Of a stretch of DNA of 64,000 bases, positions 1,941 to 54,943 are shown piece by piece; the stretch's first letter is position 1; each line of letters begins with the position of its first letter. Source of the stretch: Escherichia phage SP15. The DNA lies in sequence record AP019559; one strand, written 5' to 3'. The notes beneath the pieces were generated by a model. That model saw only the letters and a program-made list of their open reading frames with translations. It had not been told where the DNA came from and did not search any database. A program made the position numbers and the translations under genes.

Positions 1941-4376
1941 TTAAATAGTACAACCACCTGATGCACAACCGGCTGCTTCTTCTCCAGCACCACCACCATT
2001 TGCGGTGTTGAAGTTAGCATAATACCAAGTTTTCCACCCGTATTTAACAGCAGTCATGAAATCACGAACTACTACTGGGCCAGGAATAATTTCATTCTCA
2101 AACTTGGTGTAGTCGTAGTACATATTCGTACTGATAGACTGACTGAAGAATTTCTGCATAGTTGCTACCCATTTGATCCACTCGATACGATCTACATCAT
2201 AAGCCAGTTTATAGCTCATTAAAGTTTCCCAATCGGTTGCACCTGGAGCAATTGCAATTACTTTATTCACTGCACTACCCTTGATAGACACAATCTTACG
2301 AGGTGGTTCAATAGAGTTAGTAACCCCTAACAGAACGGAAGAACTTTCTCCCGGCATCTGCGCAGTCAGAACAGAGTTACGCATACCATATTTCAGAATA
2401 TCTGCACGTAGAGACTCCCAATCCATTTCTAGACCTACGGATACCAGTTCATCAACAGTTTTCTTGTATGTGTCGATTACCAGAATTCCTTTAGATGGTT
2501 TAGTACGATCAAACCACTCACATGCACCCTGTTCTTTAGCTAGGCGTACAGAGGCTTTATGCAGGAAGTAAGACAGTTTTTCAGCCTCACGGTGAATCCA
2601 GTTACGGGCTTCAATACCTTCATAAGCCAGACCTTCTGCTGCCATTGCACCTGCTGCGTTCATCAGGCCAATACCAACATTACGACGTTTCTTAGCCGTA
2701 TATTCCATAGTTGGGAACGGATAATCCTGAATTTCAATAATTGTATCAACGAATTTCAGGAGGATGTAGCAAGTTTTTTCCCACTCAGCCAGAGATTCCA
2801 TGCGTCCAAGTACAACACCACCTAAGTTACATAGAGATACTTCACCAATATCCTCCGGCTTCATTTGATCAAGTTGTTCTTTTGTTTTATACAGTTCCGT
2901 GATATGGTGGAACGGGCGTGTAGGCTGAGTAATCTCAACACAAAGGTTTGTCATACGGATCGGATCAAGGAAATTACCGTGACGATTAGATTCCCCGATG
3001 TGATGCGCATACATACGTCCTGTTTCCATTCGGATACGTAGCCAAGTATCTAGGATTTCTTTTGCAGAGACTTTAGGAGCTGCTGGAACTGTTTTTCCTT
3101 CGTGGTCGATCTTTGTAAGAGATGCCACACGTTTCTCCGCTGCCACGTAGATTTCTTCAAATTTAGCCTCGTCATCACTATAAAACGCTTCATGAACTTC
3201 TGGAGCATAGAAGTATGACATTAGCGTAATATCTTCGTTTTTAAGATAACGTTTTAACAAAAGATTGTTGAAGCTCAGAGAATAATCCATCTTATCGATT
3301 TTATTCTCATCTGTAGCACGTTGTTGCTTAACCTGCATCAATTGAATGATTTCAGGGTCGAAGTATGGATAAGATACTGTAGCAGAACCACCACGAGTTT
3401 GCTGAGTATTGGCCTTTACTGAGCGGTCAATGTGTCGATAATATGGCAGTTTTCCGGAATGCGGGAATGCCCCATTTCGCACCGGATCAGCAATTGATCG
3501 GCTTTCAAGATGATACCCGATTCCCGCTCTGGCTGCGACCATTTTGAAGACGATGTGCTCGGCGGTGTCGATTGAATCCAACGTGTCAGTGGAATCCACG
3601 AGACAGCAACTAGCAAATCCACGGTCACTAGAGCGCAGACCAACCAGTGGCGGCGTAGGAACGTTGATTTTGTGGAGTGACATTGCGTTGTAGAGGTCGA
3701 TTGCATCTAGAATTGTCCAGTTAGGTTGAGAAAGCATCGCCATTGCCATACCCATGTAGGCAAACTGCGGGGTTTCATAAATTTCACCAGTGGCTATATT
3801 ACGACGGGAATACTTATCAAAGAACTGCTTCAGCCCACCACTAGTAAAAAGACGGTCACGATCATGGTCGATAACCTGATTCAGAGCCTCAAATTGCTCA
3901 TCGGTAATCCATGCACTCATGTCTTCCCATGCACCTACGCTAACCATGTGGTCATGGAAGAAGCGTAGAGAAGGCGGTTCGAAAGAGTCATAAAGGCGTT
4001 TACGCATTTGCGCAAGACGTAATTCCTTTGCTGGCACATCGTATGCTGGGTTATCTTTGATAAGACTTTCAGCAGCTTTAATTAATGCGTCCATCAGAGT
4101 GTCGGAATCTACAACCCCTTTAGGTAGAGTTTTTTGAGCAGCCATAGTAATGGCGGACCAACTTACATCAACTGTTTTGCAACCATACTCTGCCCAACCA
4201 TTGAGTTTTTCAGGAGCAAAGTCTTCTACAGTACCGTCACGTTTAATTACTTTTTCAATGCGATGGCTCATTTGGCTTTCCTTTTTATAGTTATCAGGAT
4301 TTAAGGAATATTTTACTTTATTATCGGTCATTAGGCAAATAAAATTTTCTGATAGAAAAGGCCCGAGTATTTTCAT
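1941..4376 (-). CDS. nrdA: Ribonucleotide reductase class Ia large subunit
   Basis: 811 aa; N-terminal ATP-cone, active-site NLCVEITQPT, C-terminal Cys pair (CASGGC); exact start uncertain. Confidence 0.9.
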   Translation of the reverse strand: MKILGPFLSENFICLMTDNKVKYSLNPDNYKKESQMSHRIEKVIKRDGTVEDFAPEKLNGWAEYGCKTVDVSWSAITMAAQKTLPKGVVDSDTLMDALIKAAESLIKDNPAYDVPAKELRLAQMRKRLYDSFEPPSLRFFHDHMVSVGAWEDMSAWITDEQFEALNQVIDHDRDRLFTSGGLKQFFDKYSRRNIATGEIYETPQFAYMGMAMAMLSQPNWTILDAIDLYNAMSLHKINVPTPPLVGLRSSDRGFASCCLVDSTDTLDSIDTAEHIVFKMVAARAGIGYHLESRSIADPVRNGAFPHSGKLPYYRHIDRSVKANTQQTRGGSATVSYPYFDPEIIQLMQVKQQRATDENKIDKMDYSLSFNNLLLKRYLKNEDITLMSYFYAPEVHEAFYSDDEAKFEEIYVAAEKRVASLTKIDHEGKTVPAAPKVSAKEILDTWLRIRMETGRMYAHHIGESNRHGNFLDPIRMTNLCVEITQPTRPFHHITELYKTKEQLDQMKPEDIGEVSLCNLGGVVLGRMESLAEWEKTCYILLKFVDTIIEIQDYPFPTMEYTAKKRRNVGIGLMNAAGAMAAEGLAYEGIEARNWIHREAEKLSYFLHKASVRLAKEQGACEWFDRTKPSKGILVIDTYKKTVDELVSVGLEMDWESLRADILKYGMRNSVLTAQMPGESSSVLLGVTNSIEPPRKIVSIKGSAVNKVIAIAPGATDWETLMSYKLAYDVDRIEWIKWVATMQKFFSQSISTNMYYDYTKFENEIIPGPVVVRDFMTAVKYGWKTWYYANFNTANGGGAGEEAAGCASGGCTI

Positions 4377-16213: not shown

Positions 16214-16624
16214 ATGACTACTCCAACTCAGTGGACTGATGAACTGTTTGAAAAAATGTCTTCCGAATATGTTGCTCGTATGGAGCAATTCCCAGAGGAT
16301 GAACGTCCGGGTGTTAGCATGGAAATTGTTAGCGAAATTGCCCAGGAAAATGGTGTAACTCCGAACGGTTTTCGTATGAAGCTGACTAAAGCAGGTTTGT
16401 ATATCAAGAAAGCTGCTGGTTCTACTTCGAAATCTAGCGCATCTACTGGAGAAAAAGCTTCCGGTGGTTCTCGTACCTCCAAAGCTCAAGCCCATGCCGA
16501 CCTTCGTTCAGCTTTCTCTGATGCTGGCTTAGCACCAGATTTTCTGGATGATGCAATTATCGACAAACTGACCGGTAAAGCGGCTGCTCATCTGGCAGAA
16601 GCAATCCGAGCTATCACTAAGTAA
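16214..16624 (+). CDS. Hypothetical protein with Ser/Thr/Gly-rich linker
   Basis: 136 aa, RBS AAGGAAAT; host-optimal codon usage. Confidence 0.5.
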   Translation: MTTPTQWTDELFEKMSSEYVARMEQFPEDERPGVSMEIVSEIAQENGVTPNGFRMKLTKAGLYIKKAAGSTSKSSASTGEKASGGSRTSKAQAHADLRSAFSDAGLAPDFLDDAIIDKLTGKAAAHLAEAIRAITK

Positions 16625-17676: not shown

Positions 17677-18648
17677 ATGACTAATGTAAAAGAATTTATT
17701 AAACGCTGTCAAGAAGCATATTATCGGGGTATGTCTTTAATCTCTGATGAGGAGTATGATTGCCTGGTAAAACGCTTCCCGTTAGAAGAAGAGATCGGGC
17801 CTAAGGGTGATATTCCACATCTGTACCGTATGTATTCTTTACAGAAAGTTTATTATAATCGTGGGGATAAACCACCATTTAATCCTTTAGGTCAGGTAGA
17901 AACTGATAAGTTAGATGGTTGTGCAATTTCTCTGCTATATATTAACGGCGAATTTGTTCAAGCACTAACTCGTGGTAATGGTATTCTAGGGAATGATGTC
18001 ACAAGCAACGTAAGACTGCTGAATATCCCTAAAAAGATTTCCCAAAAAGTACCAACTCAAATCACTGGTGAAGTTCTAATTACAAAAGAAGTAGAAAATA
18101 AACGTAACTTTGCCTCTGGTGCTATTAACCTCAAAGATAGTGATGATTTCGTACAACGTATCGGGGAAGGTGGTTTAATCTTCGTTGCATACGGTATCCA
18201 GTGTTCTGCCGAATCTGTAGGTATTACAGAAGCATACTTAAAAGATATGCTTTGGCTAGAGAATGAGAACTTCTTAACAGTTGTTAATGTGCGTTCCTTC
18301 TTTAAATGGATTCCGACGGACGGTAAAGTTGTTCGTATTAATGACAACAACAAATTCTTCCGAGAAGGCTGGACTAATAAATTCCCTCGCGGGGCGTTCG
18401 CTATTAAAGAGGATGAAGAAGGCGAGATTACAACTCTTACTAAAGTTGAATGGCAGGTAGGGGCTTCTGGTAAAGTAACTCCAGTTGGTTATTTCGAACC
18501 GGTAATTATTGATGATGCTACAATTGTTAAAGCGACTCTTAATAACGTTGATTATATTAACTCTCTCGATCTAGAGATCGGTTGCCAGATTCGAGTGATT
18601 CGTGCTGGTGGTGTAATCCCGTGCATAGTAGAGCGAGTATACGATTAA
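17677..18648 (+). CDS. ligA: NAD-dependent DNA ligase, N-terminal part (adenylation and OB domains)
   Basis: KLDGCAISLLYINGEFVQALTRGNGILGNDVT matches LigA KxDG and TRGDG motifs; ends before the zinc-finger/HhH/BRCT part. Confidence 0.75.
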   Translation: MTNVKEFIKRCQEAYYRGMSLISDEEYDCLVKRFPLEEEIGPKGDIPHLYRMYSLQKVYYNRGDKPPFNPLGQVETDKLDGCAISLLYINGEFVQALTRGNGILGNDVTSNVRLLNIPKKISQKVPTQITGEVLITKEVENKRNFASGAINLKDSDDFVQRIGEGGLIFVAYGIQCSAESVGITEAYLKDMLWLENENFLTVVNVRSFFKWIPTDGKVVRINDNNKFFREGWTNKFPRGAFAIKEDEEGEITTLTKVEWQVGASGKVTPVGYFEPVIIDDATIVKATLNNVDYINSLDLEIGCQIRVIRAGGVIPCIVERVYD

Positions 18649-18698
18649 CTAACAACCCTTTGCTACCCATCTACCATATCGGAATTATAAAGTGGTTA

Positions 18699-18727
18699 TT
18701 GACATTTTCGCCGCTTAGGTATATACT
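18699..18727 (+). promoter_or_regulatory. Sigma70 promoter (TTGACA, 17 nt, TATACT) within the ligase spacer
   Basis: Consensus hexamers between the two ligase ORFs. Confidence 0.5.
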
Positions 18728-18791
18728 ATTATCATTCAGTTGAGGGATAGAAAGTTATGGCGAGGGTAAGCAAAGTTAGTTAAAATTGTAG

Positions 18792-18820
18792 TTGCTAAAT
18801 GCTTAAATACTTGCTATAAT
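18792..18820 (+). promoter_or_regulatory. T5-type early promoter (TTGCTA, 17 nt, TATAAT)
   Basis: Directly upstream of second ligase ORF; ATAAATTGATAAGGAAG leader. Confidence 0.55.
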
Positions 18821-18850
18821 ATTTATATAAATTGATAAGGAAGAAATTTG

Positions 18851-19630
18851 ATGAAAATCGAAATTCCAACACAATGTCCCTCTTGTGGTTCTAAGCTCGA
18901 TCTTGTCAACGGACAATTATTCTGTCGTAATAAGTCCAACTGTCCAGCACAATCAAGTAAGTTAATTGAGAACTTCTGTACAAAAATGAAGTTAAAGGGT
19001 TTTGGCCCAAAAACTATTGAGAAGCTGGAGCTGACGAAGATTTCAGAACTATTTTACCTAACCGAAGAAGATTTGGTTAGAGCCGTGGGTAGCAAGGTTG
19101 CCGCTAAGTTAATTAGCGAATTAAATACTAAAGTTCGCGGAGACATTGACTTTGGTTCAGTTCTCGGTTCTTTAGGAATCCCTCTAATTGGAGAGGTTGC
19201 AGCAAAGAAATTATCCCAAAATTGCACTAGCTTCCACGATGTGAAGGCTGACGGCAAGGCTGGAGAAAACTATAAAGCCTGGCTAAATTCCACACAAGGC
19301 AAGGATGTTATCGAATTACCGTGGAAATTCACAACTGGTATTAAAGGTGCTAAAGCCGAGGTCATCATTACTGATGGTCTAGTAGCCCAACCAAATGGAA
19401 TAACGGTATGTATTACCGGATCTTTGCAAGATTTTGCAAATAGAACGGATGCAACAAACTATCTAGAAGGTCTAGGGTATACTGTTAAAAAATCAGTTAC
19501 CAAAGACGTTAAATACCTAATCTGTGAGGATGAATCTAAGCGTTCTTCCTCATCTTATAAGAAAGCCGAAACGAATGGGATAGAAATCCTGTCGATTAAA
19601 GAACTATTGGAGAAAAATAATAATGTCTAA
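18851..19630 (+). CDS. ligA: NAD-dependent DNA ligase, C-terminal part (zinc finger, HhH, BRCT-like)
   Basis: N-terminal Cys cluster CPSCGS...CRNKSNCP, then GFGPKTIEKLEL helix-hairpin-helix. Confidence 0.7.
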   Translation: MKIEIPTQCPSCGSKLDLVNGQLFCRNKSNCPAQSSKLIENFCTKMKLKGFGPKTIEKLELTKISELFYLTEEDLVRAVGSKVAAKLISELNTKVRGDIDFGSVLGSLGIPLIGEVAAKKLSQNCTSFHDVKADGKAGENYKAWLNSTQGKDVIELPWKFTTGIKGAKAEVIITDGLVAQPNGITVCITGSLQDFANRTDATNYLEGLGYTVKKSVTKDVKYLICEDESKRSSSSYKKAETNGIEILSIKELLEKNNNV

Positions 19631-20390
19631 ACTGAACTGGAACGTAGAGGGTGTAACCGAGTCTCTGAAAGCAAAAGCCACTGCTCTGGGTGTTGATGTA
19701 ATCTCTCAAGAACAAGTAGCTGCTATCGCTGCTGAACTGGCTGCTGAAACTGGCAAAGACGTTACCGCTCGCTCTGTTGGCTCTAAGCTGCGTAAAGAAG
19801 GTTTCGAAGTACAGAAAGCTAACGAAGTACAGAAATCCCCGTGGACTCCTGAGCAGGAAGCTGAACTGGTTGATTTCCTGAACGCTCATGCTGGTCAGTA
19901 TACTTATGCTGAAATCGCTGCTGCTGTAGCTGGTGGTCAGTTCGGTGCTAAACAGGTACAGGGTAAGATCCTGAGTCTGGAAATGACCGCTTCTGTTAAA
20001 CCAACTGAAAAAGCTGCTGCTGTTCGTTCCTTCACCCCTGATGAAGAAACTGATTTTGTTAACCAGGTTGTTGCTGGTGCTACTATTGAAGCTATCGCTG
20101 CTCACTTCGGTCGCAATATTAAGCAGATCCGTGGTAAAGCTCTGAGTCTGCTTCGTGAAGGTCGTATCGCCGCTATGCCGGTACAGGAAACTTCAAGTGC
20201 TAAAACTCGTGAAGATCTGTTAGAAGGTCTGGATCTGGCTAACATGACCGTTGCTGAGATTGCTGAGAAAACTGGTAAGTCTGAGCGTGGTGTTAAATCT
20301 ATGCTGTCTCGTCGTGGTCTGGTTGCTAAGGACTATGATGGTGCCGCTAAGCGTGCTAAACTGGATGCAAAAGCTGCGGCTGCTGAATAA
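19623..20390 (+). CDS. Four-repeat HTH (sigma70 region 4-like / HeH-like) DNA-binding protein, Ala-rich, host-optimal codon usage; possibly the abundant early DNA-binding protein (T5 D5-like)
   Basis: Four ~45-aa repeats each ending in an xIAxxxGxxxxxVxxxxSKLR-like helix-turn-helix; CTG/GCT/CGT/GGT codon bias unlike neighbours. Confidence 0.6.
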   Translation: MSKLNWNVEGVTESLKAKATALGVDVISQEQVAAIAAELAAETGKDVTARSVGSKLRKEGFEVQKANEVQKSPWTPEQEAELVDFLNAHAGQYTYAEIAAAVAGGQFGAKQVQGKILSLEMTASVKPTEKAAAVRSFTPDEETDFVNQVVAGATIEAIAAHFGRNIKQIRGKALSLLREGRIAAMPVQETSSAKTREDLLEGLDLANMTVAEIAEKTGKSERGVKSMLSRRGLVAKDYDGAAKRAKLDAKAAAAE

Positions 20391-20407: not shown

Positions 20408-20440
20408 AAGGGGAGGGGGCTATGCTCCTTCCCCTTTTTG
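20408..20440 (+). terminator. Rho-independent terminator
   Basis: GC-rich hairpin AAGGGGAGGGGG...CCTTCCCCTT followed by TTTTT. Confidence 0.6.
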
Positions 20441-20472
20441 CATTTAGAAGGCACGAAAGCGTGCAAAGGAGA

Positions 20473-21945
20473 ATGACCTTGTTTAACGTGCAAGCTGTAG
20501 TGTTGAAGATGCTTCTAGCTTCCGAACAGAAGCAAATAGCATTGGAAACATTCTCAAAACTGCATAAAGATCATTTTAATGACGCTTTCTCCTCAATTTA
20601 CCAAGCCGTCCAGAATTATTATAAAAAATATAACACAATGCCGTCCATTGACGCACTGATGCTTGAGGCTAATAGGAACGCCCGCCTTTCTCAAGCTCTA
20701 GTCGTTTTAGCTAACACTCAAATTCCAGAAGTTAGCATGGAACAGGCACTTGAAGTCCTAGAAGCCGAGTATACACAGGATTTATTCCTGAAGCTTCTAG
20801 AAACAGACGTGCTTCAAGATTTAACAATGCTGGATCAGGGAGAAATTCTTAACCGAGTTGCCTCCCTTCACTTAAAATTAGAAGAGAAAGTAACGAATAC
20901 TGGAAAAGTATTCAACGCAGATAACATGCGTATTTTCCAGAGAGAAGAAGATACCAAACTGAACTTAATCGCTCTTGGTATCTGTAATGAGTTCGACGCT
21001 CAAATTGGTTTAGCTCGCACAGAAACGTTACTGCTTGGTGGTTGGCGTGGTACTGGTAAATCCATTATCTGTTCAAACATACAGGTTCAGCAATATTTGA
21101 ATGGGGATATTGCTCCATACTTCTCAATTGAGATGAAAGAACATGAAGTATTTAGACGTAATCTAGCCATGTTAGCTGGTGTATCCGCACTAGCAATGCG
21201 TAATAATACTCTAGAAGGCGCAGCTCTGTTGAGATTAGCCAGAACTAGAGCTAGGATGTTTAATGGTGGTGAAGAGCTTTTCGATAACTTCGTTAAACAG
21301 TACACAATGGCTAAGATGAGTGATTTCTACGATATGGAAAGTAAGCTAATAGAAGGGTATGAACTACATACTCCTATGATTATTGTTTATGATCCTGAGC
21401 TGTCTATTACAACAGTTGACGTAGAATTAAATAAATTAGTTGCTAGATATGGGGATAAAGTTACAGTAGCTTTACTGGACTATATTAACCAAACCCGACT
21501 TCCAGATTCTAAAACCATTGATATGTATGACTGGAAAGAACAGATGGTTGTTAGCTCGTCTTTCAAATCTATCTGCCAGAAACATAACGTGGCTGGCGTA
21601 GCTCCTTACCAGATCGATCAAGATGGTAGAACACGTATGTCAAAAGGGATTCTTGATTCCGCAGACATGGCTGCTAATCTTAATGCTGCAAAAGCTGATA
21701 ATGGTCAAGGTGCTATTATGTTTGACTTCGTTAAGACTCGTTCTTCTGATAGCGTGAAGTTTATGCCTAAAATGAACTGGGAAACCCTGCGGATGGATAA
21801 TACTACCAACCTAGCAATGGAAGATATATCTCAAATGGAAGCTGAGTTCGTTATCCCTATTGAGAAGGATAAGCCGGCTCAATCTAAACGTGCTAAGAAA
21901 GACAAAGCTGAAAATTCAACAGGTGAACAGGCCAGCGATATATGA
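20473..21945 (+). CDS. DnaB-like replicative DNA helicase
   Basis: Walker A GGWRGTGKSIICSN; start uncertain (ORF open from 20422). Confidence 0.7.
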   Translation: MTLFNVQAVVLKMLLASEQKQIALETFSKLHKDHFNDAFSSIYQAVQNYYKKYNTMPSIDALMLEANRNARLSQALVVLANTQIPEVSMEQALEVLEAEYTQDLFLKLLETDVLQDLTMLDQGEILNRVASLHLKLEEKVTNTGKVFNADNMRIFQREEDTKLNLIALGICNEFDAQIGLARTETLLLGGWRGTGKSIICSNIQVQQYLNGDIAPYFSIEMKEHEVFRRNLAMLAGVSALAMRNNTLEGAALLRLARTRARMFNGGEELFDNFVKQYTMAKMSDFYDMESKLIEGYELHTPMIIVYDPELSITTVDVELNKLVARYGDKVTVALLDYINQTRLPDSKTIDMYDWKEQMVVSSSFKSICQKHNVAGVAPYQIDQDGRTRMSKGILDSADMAANLNAAKADNGQGAIMFDFVKTRSSDSVKFMPKMNWETLRMDNTTNLAMEDISQMEAEFVIPIEKDKPAQSKRAKKDKAENSTGEQASDI

Positions 21946-22475
21946 TAACACAGGAAAGGCTAAAAGAGTTATTTGATTACTCCCCAGAAACTGGGGAGTT
22001 TACTAGAAAAGTATCTAGAGGTAATCAGAAAGCTGGTAGTATAATAACCAGAAAAGACTCTAACGGTTATATAATTATTGGTATAGATGGCAAGGGTTAC
22101 AAAGCCCATCGGATGGCTTTTCTATTTATGGAAAATACATTGCCGGAAAAAGTAGACCATGTAAACAGAATACCTTTTGATAATAGGTGGTGTAATCTAA
22201 GAGACGCCACAGCTCAGGAAAATAGTAGAAATAAAACCGCATGTAGTAAGTCTGGATATTTGGGAGTTGCTTGGGATATCGAAAAACAAAGATGGAGAGT
22301 TCAAGTAAGAGACTCTAATAGCACTCTTAAAAATGGTGGCAGATTTAAGTATGAAGAGCTAGAGCTAGCTGTAAATTCAGCAAATATATTAAGGACTAAG
22401 TTACATGGAGAACGTGCTGTTATAGAAATTTTTGATACATCCAATTATCCTTCACTGGAGGAGTTAAATTCATGA
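21942..22475 (+). CDS. HNH homing endonuclease with AP2-like DNA-binding domain
   Basis: VDHVNRIPFDNRWCNLRDAT and SGYLGVAWD; ATGA overlaps with both flanking genes; paralog of 63412-63948. Confidence 0.75.
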   Translation: MITQERLKELFDYSPETGEFTRKVSRGNQKAGSIITRKDSNGYIIIGIDGKGYKAHRMAFLFMENTLPEKVDHVNRIPFDNRWCNLRDATAQENSRNKTACSKSGYLGVAWDIEKQRWRVQVRDSNSTLKNGGRFKYEELELAVNSANILRTKLHGERAVIEIFDTSNYPSLEELNS

Positions 22476-28438: not shown

Positions 28439-28723
28439 ATGCTTATAGAGCCTGATGCTCACCAATTATTGGTCGGTTCCTCATTCATTTTGAATGAGTC
28501 AACAATAGTTGATAATCCAAATAAATTGTCTAATAGACAACTGGCAGAATATCTAGGAATTTTAAGTCTACGAAATTATGCCGAATACAAGTTTACAAAC
28601 GATCCTAGTTTGAACATACAATATGTTCCAGTATGGATACCACGTTTAGTAATCGACACTAACCCACTAATCGCAATTAACAAATCGAAATTAATCTTTA
28701 AAGAGGAAATAAAATATGGCTAA
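28439..28723 (+). CDS. Hypothetical protein (doubtful)
   Basis: 94-aa ORF without clear RBS. Confidence 0.25.
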   Translation: MLIEPDAHQLLVGSSFILNESTIVDNPNKLSNRQLAEYLGILSLRNYAEYKFTNDPSLNIQYVPVWIPRLVIDTNPLIAINKSKLIFKEEIKYG

Positions 28724-29489
28724 GTCTTGGGGCGAAACTACTGGCGGTTCTAACGATAAAATCGAATTCCTGAAGTTCAACAACGGTATCACTCGTGTTC
28801 GTATCGTTTCTGGTGTTCTTCCACGTTATGTCTATTGGCTGACTAATAAAGAGGGTAACGTAGCTCCTTTCGAATGTCTCCGTTTTAACCGTGACAAAGA
28901 GAGCTTTGTTCGTGGTAAAGCTGATCCAGTTCATGAGATGGGCTTCTTCGAGAAAGAGCTGGATAAAGATGGTAATCGTGTTCCGCTGAAACCGAAGAAA
29001 AACTATATCGCTTTTGTTATCGACCGTTCTGATAACAAACTGAAAGTAATGGAAGTCAAGGCTACTATTCTGAAAGGCATCCAGTCTATCATGAAGCAGT
29101 TGAATCTGGCAACTCCGTTTGATATTGATATTTCTATCGAGAAAAAAGGTAAAGGTTTCGATACTGAGTATGATGTGCAGCAGATTGCTGCTATGCAGTT
29201 CCAGATTAAGCTGCAAGACCCTAACAGTGCGGAATCTAAGCAATATGCTGCGGATGTAGATCTGATCGGTGAAGCTATGTGTGATGAAGATGGCGACATC
29301 ATTAAGTTCGAAAAAGTTCCTTCTCTGGAACAAACCTATCCGGTTCCTACCTATGAAGAGCAGAAAGAAGCAATTCAAGCCTTCATGGAAGGTCGTGAGA
29401 ATAAAGATGATGATGCCAAATCTGGTAATAGCAATGCAGGCTCCCAGAAAGGTATTGACACAGAAGCTGCAAGCGATCTGGACGACTAA
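28716..29489 (+). CDS. Highly expressed early protein with acidic C-terminal tail, possible ssDNA-binding protein
   Basis: Strong RBS AAAGAGGAAAT, host-optimal codons, C-terminus EAASDLDD; function inferred only. Confidence 0.4.
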   Translation: MAKSWGETTGGSNDKIEFLKFNNGITRVRIVSGVLPRYVYWLTNKEGNVAPFECLRFNRDKESFVRGKADPVHEMGFFEKELDKDGNRVPLKPKKNYIAFVIDRSDNKLKVMEVKATILKGIQSIMKQLNLATPFDIDISIEKKGKGFDTEYDVQQIAAMQFQIKLQDPNSAESKQYAADVDLIGEAMCDEDGDIIKFEKVPSLEQTYPVPTYEEQKEAIQAFMEGRENKDDDAKSGNSNAGSQKGIDTEAASDLDD

Positions 29490-49001: not shown

Positions 49002-49406
49002 TTACGCTTTTGAGCTACGAAAAGTGTCTAAGTGGAACACTGTCTGGTTGATCCAAGAATCAAACGCAGCAGAGTTCTGCATGAGCATTACAGCATTATC
49101 GCGGCTAAAAGGAACTTCAGTAGCAGGATCAGCATCTGTTTCAATCAGCATCAGTTTTTCAACGTCACCTACAGTCAAACCGGTCCAACCTTTAATAGCT
49201 GCGTCAACGAAGGCTTCAATGAACTTATCATCATCCTGTACCTGAATCAAAGTACCATTAACCCATTCATCGCGTTTAGCAGAAGAAATAACACGTTTAG
49301 AGGTAGCACGAGACATATAGTTAAGTTCTAATTTAAAGTTCGGCATACCTGGGTAGGAAAGAGTAATAGTACGAGTATCAAGAGTAATATCTTTTAAATT
49401 AATCAT
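49002..49406 (-). CDS. Putative tail assembly chaperone
   Basis: Acidic 134-aa ORF with GGAG RBS, upstream of tape measure gene. Confidence 0.5.
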   Translation of the reverse strand: MINLKDITLDTRTITLSYPGMPNFKLELNYMSRATSKRVISSAKRDEWVNGTLIQVQDDDKFIEAFVDAAIKGWTGLTVGDVEKLMLIETDADPATEVPFSRDNAVMLMQNSAAFDSWINQTVFHLDTFRSSKA

Positions 49407-53566: not shown

Positions 53567-54943
53567 TTAAGCGGTAGCGTAAGCACCGGATACAACACCA
53601 TTACTAAAGTAACGTTGCAGGTTAACACGCTGAGTAACGTAGTATGCATCACGCTGTTTACCAGCTTGGCGCTCACGTTCAACAGTAACAGCACGCTGGC
53701 GTGGCATCACGAAGTTATCTTTATAAACAATAACTGCGAACTCTTTCTCAGCTGCTTTAGCTGGGAAGTACTCAGAAACTACAACCGGCAGACCGTAAAT
53801 ACGACCAACCTGACCTTGCAGTTTAACAGCATCGTTGCCAACCTGTGCAACATCCTGCCATTCTTCATCTTCCAGCAGATCGTAGTAAGCATCCATAGAT
53901 ACGATCAGTACCAGTTTGCTCAATTTCAGACCATGACGGCCAAGTTTACGACGCAGTTTAGAAATAGTTTTAGCAGTTACCAAAACAGTACCATCAGCTT
54001 TAGCTTCAGTAGTAACTTTAGCACCATCTTCACTAGCAAGAGTCAACAGACCTTTCGGCTGACCAGTACCATTACCAGTCATAAACGCTTCTTCGATAGA
54101 AACGGCATGTGCTTCGATCAGACGCTTACGCAGCAGAGGCAGCAGGGAGAAGATTGCATCTTCTTCAGTTTCATCAGTGATGAAGGACTTAGCAGCCAGC
54201 TTGTAAGTTTTGAAACTAATCTCAGTCAGAGTACCTTTAACTTCGTCACCAACAGTTTCGTCAGTACCGAATTTGGAAGCATCTACCCAAGTAGCTTTTC
54301 CAGCTTCTGGTTCAACCAGCATAGTAAGAATTTTGCTGGACATTGGCAGTTCATCGAACAGTGCGCCAACTACTAATTCTTTCTGCAGGTCACGGATAAT
54401 ACGAGTGGAGAAGATAGTTTCATATGCTTCGCTAGACATAGAAACGGAAGAAGAACCATTAACAGCCTTAACGTGGGCTTTACCATGTTCAGTTTCAAAT
54501 ACATCCTTCTCCATCATATAAGACAGAAGAACCAGTTTTTCAACTTCATCTTCAAAAGCTTCCTGAGTACCATACAGTGCTTTAGCTACACTATCACCAA
54601 CGAAGGAACGGCCTTCACGAGCTGCTAGCAGAGATTTAATTTCATCCTGAAGACCAACAATAGTTTCCTGTTGTTTTTCTACAGTTTGTGCAAATAGTTC
54701 TGCGCTCTTCTTAGATTTCTCATCCAGGGACTTAACCAGATCCAGAGCCTCTTCCAGACGCTTACGGTCTTCACCAACAGCTTTAGAAACCAGGTCATTC
54801 ATACGAGCCAGTTCTTTTTCTTCCTGCTCTTTACGCATACGTTCAGCTTCCTGAGCTTTCTGAGCAGCGGTCAGACCTTCCAGAGATTTAGCCAGATCAC
54901 CCAGACCAAGTTCTTCTTTCAGCTTATTAATATCAATAGTCAT
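53567..54943 (-). CDS. Major capsid protein precursor (pb8-like, HK97 fold with N-terminal scaffold domain)
   Basis: 458 aa; N-terminal coiled-coil delta domain; host-optimal codon usage. Confidence 0.85.
   Translation of the reverse strand: MTIDINKLKEELGLGDLAKSLEGLTAAQKAQEAERMRKEQEEKELARMNDLVSKAVGEDRKRLEEALDLVKSLDEKSKKSAELFAQTVEKQQETIVGLQDEIKSLLAAREGRSFVGDSVAKALYGTQEAFEDEVEKLVLLSYMMEKDVFETEHGKAHVKAVNGSSSVSMSSEAYETIFSTRIIRDLQKELVVGALFDELPMSSKILTMLVEPEAGKATWVDASKFGTDETVGDEVKGTLTEISFKTYKLAAKSFITDETEEDAIFSLLPLLRKRLIEAHAVSIEEAFMTGNGTGQPKGLLTLASEDGAKVTTEAKADGTVLVTAKTISKLRRKLGRHGLKLSKLVLIVSMDAYYDLLEDEEWQDVAQVGNDAVKLQGQVGRIYGLPVVVSEYFPAKAAEKEFAVIVYKDNFVMPRQRAVTVERERQAGKQRDAYYVTQRVNLQRYFSNGVVSGAYATA

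Follow-up and report, generated by a model that had tools for sequence, protein, structure and literature searches.

The open reading frame at positions 19623–20390 (plus strand) of the window, a 64,000-nucleotide stretch of DNA from Escherichia phage SP15 (AP019559), is the ortholog of bacteriophage T5 gene D5 (T5.118), and its product is probably an early, very abundant, monomeric protein of ~27 kDa that serves as a stoichiometric, low-specificity coat of duplex DNA. The reading frame encodes 255 amino acids (27.06 kDa, pI 6.3), as an earlier note on this DNA had read it, and both peptides quoted there occur in the product (aa 154–180 and 208–232). The source is a T5-like phage (at the nucleotide level, the window is 98.4% identical to DT57C), and database comparison gave the same 98.4% nucleotide identity to genes annotated as D5. 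The product matched PHROG 323 ("transcriptional regulator, D5-like") with an E-value of 1.5e-71, aligning aa 1–253 with profile positions 3–270 of 319. T5.118 has the same length, genomic position, and neighbors, so the tentative assignment to T5 D5 in the earlier note proved right. The protein in the window is ~98–99% identical to D5 of T5-group phages and matches the profile over its full length; coverage of the protein reaches at least 80% in 889 phage records. The gene is therefore T5 D5 in a close T5 relative: ordinary, previously annotated, and already known. D5 has been named since the 1970s, hundreds of genomes carry the annotation, and both databases and a 2026 preprint note its helix-turn-helix (HTH) nature. 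According to the T5 record, T5.118 binds DNA, is required for replication and late transcription, and takes part in early shut-off. Database labels for the protein include "transcription factor D5" and "late gene transcription factor," and the term sigma factor is used in some GenBank records. Interest in D5 stems from the T5 early-to-late switch, in which the sigma-70 holoenzyme is kept; its mechanism is called unknown in the literature, and D5 is among the few genes genetically tied to it.

The AlphaFold2 model of D5 (pLDDT 92, pTM 0.50) contains four HTH modules followed by a C-terminal helix. This was the structure-prediction check proposed with the original claim of four HTH repeats, and the claim survived it; the proposed repeat length of ~45 aa did not, since the modules measure 47–59 aa and are spaced 52–63 aa apart. 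Module R1 (aa 6–64; positions 19638–19814, plus strand) is a three-helix HTH with small β bridges that give it a winged-helix-like appearance (helices 11–22, 29–43, and 49–58). Its recognition helix (aa 49–58, ARSVGSKLRK) includes the invariant residues R50, K55, L56, and R57. R2 (aa 70–124; 19830–19994, plus strand; helices 76–88, 95–101, and 109–118) and the homologous R3 (aa 133–184; 20019–20174, plus strand; helices 139–150, 155–162, and 166–178) are Myb/SANT- or GcrA-like HTH units, with the sequences SPWTPEQEAEL...AKQVQGKILSL and SFTPDEETDF...IKQIRGKALSL, respectively. In R4 (aa 192–238; 20196–20336, plus strand), the HTH (MTVAEIAEKTGKSERGVKSMLSRRG) is followed by a short β hairpin, and the modeled helices span aa 205–207, 210–217, and 221–231. 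The conserved C-terminal amphipathic helix (aa 240–254, GAAKRAKLDAKAAAA; 20340–20384, plus strand) may offer a surface for protein-protein contact or self-association. Among D5 homologs, D237, G240, and K246 show little or no variation. Within every module, conservation peaks in the third helix, which bears invariant basic residues; its mean column identity is 0.86, 0.86, 0.71, and 0.78 in R1 to R4, respectively, versus 0.62 overall.

Relatedness among the modules was assessed by self-alignment of the protein and with hhalign, using modules cut from an alignment of 36 D5 homologs. The best off-diagonal self-alignment score was 75, at an offset of ~63 aa, against 38.4 ± 7.4 (maximum 69) for 100 shuffled sequences. 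The hhalign comparisons linked R2 with R3 (96.5% probability, E 1e-9), R3 with R4 (80%, E 1.4e-5), and R1 with both R3 and R4 (46–54%, E ~1e-4); the R1–R2 and R2–R4 pairs were weak. No repeat of the module period was found in the DNA by TRF, which returned only 9- and 12-nt micro-repeats; a recent tandem duplication at the DNA level was thus rejected, and the duplication of the modules is ancient.

A Foldseek search of the PDB with the whole D5 model yielded no match below E 0.05, as expected for a beads-on-a-string model with its low pTM. The best fold match was the DNA-binding domain of Caulobacter GcrA (PDB 5yiu), and D5 shows the features of a GcrA-type N-terminal DNA-binding domain, with the difference that it has four such modules and lacks the C-terminal sigma-70-interacting domain of GcrA. 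The corresponding sequence-profile match was not significant (E 0.44), and the Pfam GcrA model matched just 3 of 36 homologs, through its N-terminal part alone, and not the D5 protein of the window. The array also resembles the tandem three-helix DNA-binding units of Myb/SANT proteins (c-Myb R1–R3, SNAPC4, and the Timeless DNA-binding domain). A Myb-like W/F-[ST]-P-[DE]-[EQ]-E motif opens both R2 and R3, and the profile of these two modules matched the Myb repeats of SNAPC4 (E 1.3e-4) and c-Myb (5e-4) as well as MYB21 and B-Myb, over a range of E 1e-4 to 4e-3. With the Pfam Myb_DNA-binding model, the D5 protein of the window scored 17.6 bits, below the 24.4 cut-off, and 10 of 36 homologs matched at E ≤ 0.01 (best 4.2e-6). 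Unlike Myb, D5 does not keep the evenly spaced tryptophan triad, its aromatics being present in part (W74, Y95), and its R1 and R4 modules are different HTH flavors. Likeness to HeH or Rho-N modules, raised at the outset, found no support: no HeH, SAP, or Rho-N fold or model matched D5 significantly, the best being the SAP domain 1zrj at E 0.25. The R4 profile retrieved nothing meaningful from PDB sequences. Foldseek searches of viral models returned phage proteins with multiple HTH units (E 1e-6 to 1e-3). Other phage proteins with tandem HTH units, such as homing-endonuclease DNA-binding tails, Mor, and Pax/Tc3-like paired HTH proteins, differ from D5 in module number or by the presence of catalytic or further domains. 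The D5 profile also matched long poly-HTH arrays in metagenomes, and among the sequences compared, the four-module form of ~250 aa was confined to Demerecviridae-type phages.

The repeats had further been likened to sigma-70 region 4.2, and this likeness stands for one module only. Pfam Sigma70_r4_2 (PF08281) matched D5 above its cut-off (29.1 bits versus 25.7) at aa 204–230 in R4, and it matched 30 of 36 homologs. The alignment covers profile positions 23–49 of 54, a 27-residue HTH core. Searches with Pfam detected no Sigma70_r2 at E ≤ 10 and no sigma region 3 or region 4.1 in D5, and the NCBIfam sigma70-ECF model reached just 15 bits against a cut-off of 42.9, at aa 200–230 only. The first helix of R4 has just three residues in the AlphaFold2 model, so D5 does not contain a complete region 4 (4.1 plus 4.2), and structural searches with the model revealed no preference for sigma factors. 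By sequence, the resemblance to sigma-70 region 4.2 is at the level of the HTH clan.

D5 forms one transcription unit with the upstream gene ligB (18848–19630, plus strand), which encodes NAD-dependent DNA ligase subunit B. A promoter scan located two sigma-70 promoter-like sites on the plus strand upstream of ligB: TTGACA-17-TATACT (18699–18727), equivalent to T5 early promoter P-K28b, and TTGCTA-17-TATAAT with an extended -10 TG (18792–18820), equivalent to P-K28a. T5 annotation places both promoters at the equivalent position, and Proteus phage PM135 has a comparable pair. The ligB stop and D5 start overlap by 8 nt (ATGTCTAA), and a GGAG Shine-Dalgarno-like element (19609–19612, plus strand) is found 10 nt before the D5 ATG. 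Judged from these signals, D5 and ligB are transcribed jointly from strong early promoters. An intrinsic terminator with a 13-bp stem, a 3-nt loop, and a T-tract (20408–20441, plus strand) lies 18 nt beyond the D5 stop codon; T5 has the identical element, and PM135 retains it with three compensatory pair changes. This terminator probably limits read-through into the DnaB-like helicase gene, which flanks D5 on its other side, and the earlier placement of D5 between a ligase and a replicative helicase gene is thus correct. The upstream promoters and downstream hairpin are those of the T5 unit, with no substantive difference.

The codon usage of D5 is the most host-adapted in the window. Its codon adaptation index (CAI) of 0.711 is the highest among 60 ORFs (mean 0.279, SD 0.112), followed by the 458-aa major head gene at 0.636, and its effective codon number (Nc) of 30.5 is the lowest, against 41–52 for neighboring genes. 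CAI depends on weights taken after Sharp & Li (1987) and is to that extent approximate; Nc is independent of them. In codon bias, D5 narrowly outranks the major head protein, SSB, and the D3 DNA-binding protein. The protein is Ala-rich, as had been described (45/255 residues, 17.6%), and preferred codons account for 39 of 45 Ala (GCT), 17 of 19 Leu (CTG), 10 of 12 Arg (CGT), and 17 of 19 Gly (GGT). An antisense ORF at 19596–20105 (169 aa) was rejected as a mirror artefact of this GCT-rich reading frame. These values bear out the statement that D5 is optimized for the host like the major capsid gene and unlike its neighbors, and D5 of PM135 is likewise biased relative to its neighbors. The very high expression predicted on this basis agrees with published gels, which show D5 as "very abundant" in lysates of T5 and BF23, and with phiR2-01 preparations, where it is among the most abundant proteins. 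Together, the promoters, the overlap with ligB, the host-optimal codons, and the terminator point to capsid-like, stoichiometric amounts of D5.

The location of D5 between ligB and a DnaB-like helicase gene is shared by the window, DT57C, T5, PM135, Chester, and seven metagenomic contigs, and the order ligA-ligB-D5-helicase-primase-pol is retained in every distant relative examined. In these relatives, D5 identity is 48–51%, versus 26–32% for the helicase. Strong conservation of the recognition helices extends over phages of E. coli, Proteus, and Vibrio. An origin from bacteria or other cells was rejected, as all seven "genome" matches are T5-like phage contigs mis-binned into metagenome-assembled genomes.

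A DNA coat would account for these features as follows. Each module would set its conserved third helix into the major groove, and with four modules in tandem, a single D5 monomer would span roughly two turns of the helix with little sequence specificity. Given its concentration during infection, D5 would coat the replicating phage DNA, and the altered state of the template would shut off early promoters, make late transcription possible, and keep replication orderly. Classical biochemical work described the D5 product as binding duplexes cooperatively and nonspecifically and as affecting T5 DNA polymerase at nicks. Indirect support for an abundant early protein that binds double-stranded DNA comes from the extreme codon bias, the published abundance, and the retron remodeling and modeled msDNA contact described below. 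Several observations weaken the proposal of a coat. The protein as a whole is not basic, and its computed net charge of -1 and pI of 6.3 are unusual for a nonspecific DNA coat. The recognition helices are conserved across phages, as would be expected too if they read a conserved specific site. Finally, an essential structural role is in tension with the 2026 preprint, where a W74* escape phage still forms plaques.

The conserved recognition helices are equally part of the case for D5 as a sequence-specific late-gene regulator, in which a long composite operator near early promoters, late promoters, or both would be recognized by the four HTH modules, and D5 would act as a repressor or activator in the manner of Mor or GcrA. 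Tandem HTH arrays that read composite specific sites (Myb R2R3, Pax paired domains, and the bipartite domain of Tc3) are among the structural neighbors of D5, and both the transcription-factor labels in databases and the T5 annotation, which ties D5 to late transcription and early shut-off, fit this function. However, capsid-level codon optimization and abundance are far above what a site-specific regulator needs, and the main reported difference between early and late promoters of T5 lies in the discriminator region, with no operator described. In the preprint, mass photometry identified D5 as a 26-kDa monomer and showed that it remodels the retron-Kva2 complex, and AlphaFold3 models placed its HTH on the retron msDNA stem-loop. 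Engagement of this unrelated structure, as modeled, suggests relaxed specificity, and we consider a specific regulator unlikely.

The constant position of D5 between ligB and the helicase-primase-polymerase genes, even at ~50% identity, invites another interpretation: that D5 is a replisome accessory (origin-binding, helicase-loading, or nick-protecting) working with the adjacent DnaB-like helicase, and that the transcription phenotypes are secondary to a replication defect. The T5 annotation as required for DNA replication is compatible with such a role, and the conserved C-terminal helix offers a possible docking site for a partner. Against this, small amounts of a loader or initiator suffice, yet few phage proteins are as abundant as D5, and profile searches identified no ATPase or loader-like domain in it. 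A replisome accessory is accordingly given little credence.

That D5 is a sigma mimic or RNA polymerase-directed factor, as the earlier note had also proposed, with R4 imitating sigma-70 region 4 to dock on the β-flap or displace region 4 and so redirect host RNA polymerase from early to late promoters, is highly improbable: the above-cut-off match in R4 and in most homologs, the sigma-factor label in some GenBank records, and the fold match to the sigma-70-associated factor GcrA are outweighed by the restriction of that match to half of the 54-position model, the sub-threshold sigma70-ECF score, and the lack of regions 2, 3, and 4.1 and of the sigma-interacting domain of GcrA. In published work, RNA polymerase purified 3, 15, and 25 min into T5 infection still contained sigma-70, and gpA1, a pb8 fragment, and gpT5.026 made up all of its phage-specific bands; the lack of a 27-kDa band for so abundant a protein argues against a sigma mimic or a tight polymerase-binding factor.

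The DNA coat can be extended to a more speculative and rather improbable proposal, in which D5 would be a phage "chromatin" protein. Here, the four-HTH array would polymerize on replicating phage DNA, R4 and the C-terminal helix would recruit or exclude RNA polymerase or the replisome, and D5 would act as the master switch of the T5 early-to-late transition, its abundance on DNA being sensed by defense systems such as the type IX retron. The 2026 preprint reported D5 as the trigger of that retron, with mild toxicity when D5 was expressed alone and with escape mutations G53D, V149I, and G232D in R1, R3, and R4, respectively. As the trigger, D5 has DNA-binding surfaces that are relevant to work on phage defense, and the map of four HTH modules, conserved recognition helices, and C-terminal helix provides concrete targets for mutagenesis. 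DRT4 has a different trigger, as the "phage-encoded DNA binding protein" reported for it is T5 ORF55 rather than D5. A separate preprint on degradation of host DNA by T5 concerns pre-early genes only.

The ORF at 19623-20390 (+) encodes a 255-aa product (27.06 kDa, pI 6.3, net charge -1, 17.6% Ala). The ATG of the ORF and the stop codon of ligB, the gene before it, overlap (ATGTCTAA), and GGAG is located 10 nt upstream of the ATG; genes for a DnaB-like helicase, an HNH endonuclease, primase, and DNA polymerase lie downstream. The DNA is 98.4% identical to that of Escherichia phages DT57C and DT571/2, and in DT57C the gene is flanked by ligB and dnaB; 515 phage records match at the DNA level, many labelled "D5 protein/DNA-binding protein". 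The gene of equal length in the corresponding place of the T5 reference is D5 (T5.118), annotated as [quoted passage not shown]. PHROG 323 ("transcriptional regulator, D5-like") matches the full length of the protein (E = 1.5e-71). The annotation, the position and length, and the PHROG match confirm the suggestion of the earlier note, accurate overall in its observation of this ORF, that the product may correspond to T5 D5. D5 has been known for a long time and is annotated in many genomes, and databases and a 2026 preprint already record its helix-turn-helix (HTH) nature; the module-level dissection, recognition-helix conservation, and conserved promoter-terminator unit described here are modest additions.

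The codon usage of D5 was compared with that of the other ORFs in the window using CAI weights from the Sharp and Li E. coli values, on which Nc does not depend. D5 ranked first of 60 ORFs with a CAI of 0.711 (mean 0.279, SD 0.112), followed by the major head protein (53567-54943, -; 0.636), SSB (28716-29489, +; 0.553), the D3 DNA-binding protein (16214-16624, +; 0.532), and a tail assembly chaperone (49002-49406, -; 0.456). Codon bias in the window thus marks proteins required in bulk. The Nc of D5 was 30.5, compared to 41-52 for ligA, ligB, helicase, primase, and polymerase, with strong preference for GCT (39 of 45), CTG (17/19), CGT (10/12), and GGT (17/19). In Proteus phage PM135, D5 is likewise the most codon-biased among neighboring genes. 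The high expression inferred previously from codon usage is borne out, and published data agree with it: gels of T5 and BF23 lysates show D5 as a very abundant protein, and D5 ranks among the most abundant proteins in phiR2-01 virion preparations. A Ser-rich antisense ORF of 169 aa (19596-20105, -) overlaps D5, mirrors the GCT/CTG-rich reading frame of D5 and is implausible as a gene.

Self-alignment of D5 gave a best off-diagonal score of 75 at an offset of ~63 residues (100 shuffles, 38.4 ± 7.4; maximum, 69). Four modules, R1 to R4 (aa 6-64, 70-124, 133-184, and 192-238), were cut from an alignment of 36 homologs (50-81% identical to the query) and compared profile to profile. The closest pair was R2-R3 (96.5% probability, E = 1e-9), followed by R3-R4 (80%, E = 1.4e-5) and by R1-R3 and R1-R4 (~50%, E ~1e-4); R1-R2 and R2-R4 were weak. 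AlphaFold2, run on the same alignment, returned a mean pLDDT of 92 with a pTM of 0.50, a combination that fits well-defined domains joined by flexible links in the predicted structure. The modeled HTH helices span aa 11-22/29-43/49-58 (R1), 76-88/95-101/109-118 (R2), 139-150/155-162/166-178 (R3), and (205-207)/210-217/221-231 (R4), and a short hairpin behind R4 leads to a C-terminal helix (aa 240-254). Four HTH repeats of ~45 aa had been proposed; their number and type are as predicted by the model, but their length is 47-59 aa. The duplication is old, as TRF detected no DNA repeat with the spacing of the modules. The third (recognition) helix is the best-conserved segment in all four modules (mean column identity 0.86, 0.86, 0.71, and 0.78 for R1-R4 versus 0.62 overall), with invariant basic residues at R50, K55, R57, K115, K172, and R231.

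The only Pfam family above its cut-off was Sigma70_r4_2 (29.1 versus 25.7 bits), also matched by 30 of 36 homologs, and the match was limited to aa 204-230 (profile positions 23-49 of 54), the bare HTH of R4. No Pfam match to sigma region 2 was obtained even at E ≤ 10, and the NCBIfam sigma70-ECF model scored 15 bits against a cut-off of 42.9. In profile searches of PDB sequences, R2+R3 matched Myb repeats best (SNAPC4, 1.3e-4; c-Myb, 5e-4; MYB21, 3e-3; B-Myb, 4e-3), with Timeless at 4e-3, GcrA at 0.44, and SigA at 0.3-0.8. R1 matched engrailed-type homeodomain designs (5e-5) and, weakly, RpoH (2e-3). R4 had no meaningful match; a SAP domain (1zrj) at E = 0.25 was the nearest approach to the HeH/Rho-N modules once considered, which are unsupported. 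Foldseek with the whole model gave no PDB match below E = 0.05; viral models yielded D5 orthologs (E = 1.8e-27, TM 0.73), followed by a mixture of phage proteins with several HTHs. The likeness to sigma region 4.2 noted earlier is therefore an HTH-clan-level resemblance, and domains of the Myb/SANT and GcrA types are the closer counterparts of R2 and R3. Remote D5-profile matches included P0258 (1570 aa), P0241 (599 aa), P0236 (692 aa), P0252, and P0261. These are long proteins in which at least 6-10 HTH modules of Myb-like or resolvase-like type stand in tandem, and they make up a class of poly-HTH arrays that has been little described.

The best-supported reading of D5 is a stoichiometric duplex-DNA-binding protein rather than a catalytic regulator, given expression signals at the level of a capsid gene, the abundance measured for the protein, four HTH modules predicted to fold independently and to carry conserved recognition helices, and pleiotropic phenotypes in replication, late transcription, and early shut-off. 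Studies of the 1970s and 1980s (McCorquodale et al. 1979; Rice et al. 1979; Fujimura & Roop 1983) reportedly found that D5 binds duplexes cooperatively and non-specifically and inhibits T5 polymerase on nicked duplexes. D5 would coat phage DNA, and the coating may alter the state of the template. Stoichiometric binding is also supported by the monomeric state of D5 (26 kDa by mass photometry), its mild toxicity when expressed alone, and its concentration-dependent remodeling of the retron-Kva2 complex (2026 preprint); in an AlphaFold3 model, D5 sits on the unrelated msDNA stem-loop of this retron (2026 preprint). The near-neutral pI is a caveat, being unusual in a DNA coat. A replisome accessory would fit the position of D5 in the replication module and its replication phenotype, but is argued against by the abundance of the protein and by the absence of a loader or ATPase domain in Pfam and NCBIfam searches. 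Abundance also argues against a sequence-specific regulator, as it far exceeds the needs of a site-specific factor; there is no known operator, and T5 early and late promoters reportedly differ mainly in the discriminator region. The proposed sigma mimic or RNA polymerase-directed factor is not supported, since RNA polymerase from T5-infected cells (3, 15, and 25 min) retained sigma-70 and the phage-specific bands in the purified enzyme were limited to gpA1, a pb8 fragment, and gpT5.026.

Retron-escape T5 phage with a premature stop at D5 W74 (window 19842-19844) still formed plaques, and other escape changes in D5 were G53D, V149I, and G232D (2026 preprint). The plaque-forming W74* phage is a further caveat to the DNA-coat reading and is at odds with the T5 annotation, which has D5 needed for replication and late transcription; its viability might be due to re-initiation (e.g., at M121) or to a mixture of genotypes.

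D5 protein was found in 901 phage records, with hosts including Escherichia, Salmonella, Klebsiella, Vibrio, Proteus, Aeromonas, and Pectobacterium; among the matches listed, these records are mostly ~100-128 kb. A profile search of the full library recovered 606 clusters at E ≤ 1e-3 (78 at E ≤ 1e-30), and the full-length matches among those listed are mostly ~233-262 aa, indicating that the four-module form is conserved. Across 185,579 species genomes, D5 occurred only in seven MAG contigs, labelled Methanosarcinales, Poseidoniales, Cyanobacteriota, Sphingobacteriales, Porticoccaceae, Aureispira, and Alphaproteobacteria. All seven have the order ligA-ligB-D5-helicase-primase-pol and are therefore phage contigs mis-binned into cellular genomes; their D5 proteins are 48-51% identical to that of the window and their helicases 26-32%. 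Records labelled as Listeria or Campylobacter phages (OR848168.1, OR847187.1, and MG065642.1) and two proteins labelled Enterococcus faecalis (P0020 and P0041) carry D5 98-99% identical to the window and probably represent contamination or mislabelled T5-like sequence.

A spacer of ~200 bp separates ligA from ligB, the two parts of the split NAD-dependent ligase (17677-19630, +). Sigma-70-type sites upstream of ligB at 18699-18727 (TTGACA-17-TATACT) and 18792-18820 (TTGCTA-17-TATAAT with TG) coincide with the annotated T5 early promoters P-K28b and P-K28a. With both of these putative strong early promoters in the spacer, ligB and D5 constitute a separate unit with high transcription. A terminator with a 13-bp stem and T-tract (20408-20436) lies 18 nt past the D5 stop codon and is identical in T5. 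PM135, whose D5 is 56% identical to that of the window, has both promoter-like sites and the hairpin (3283-3311 of its locus), the latter with three compensatory pair changes (G-C to A-T, A-T to G-C, and G-C to A-T); the terminator structure is conserved in both the T5 group and PM135. In Vibrio phage Chester, a simple scan found one promoter-like site and no terminator. The helicase ORF starts here at ATG 20422, as in the T5 and DT57C annotations, and this codon falls within the loop of the hairpin. The PM135 helicase ATG aligns to TTG 20479 of the window, with AGGAG 7 nt upstream, and ATG 20473 is an alternative; the true start of the helicase probably lies ~17-19 codons downstream of the annotated one. 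An HNH homing-endonuclease ORF between helicase and primase (21942-22475, +) is absent from this position in DT57C, PM135, and Chester and is therefore a mobile insertion, whose T5 counterpart in place is hegJ.
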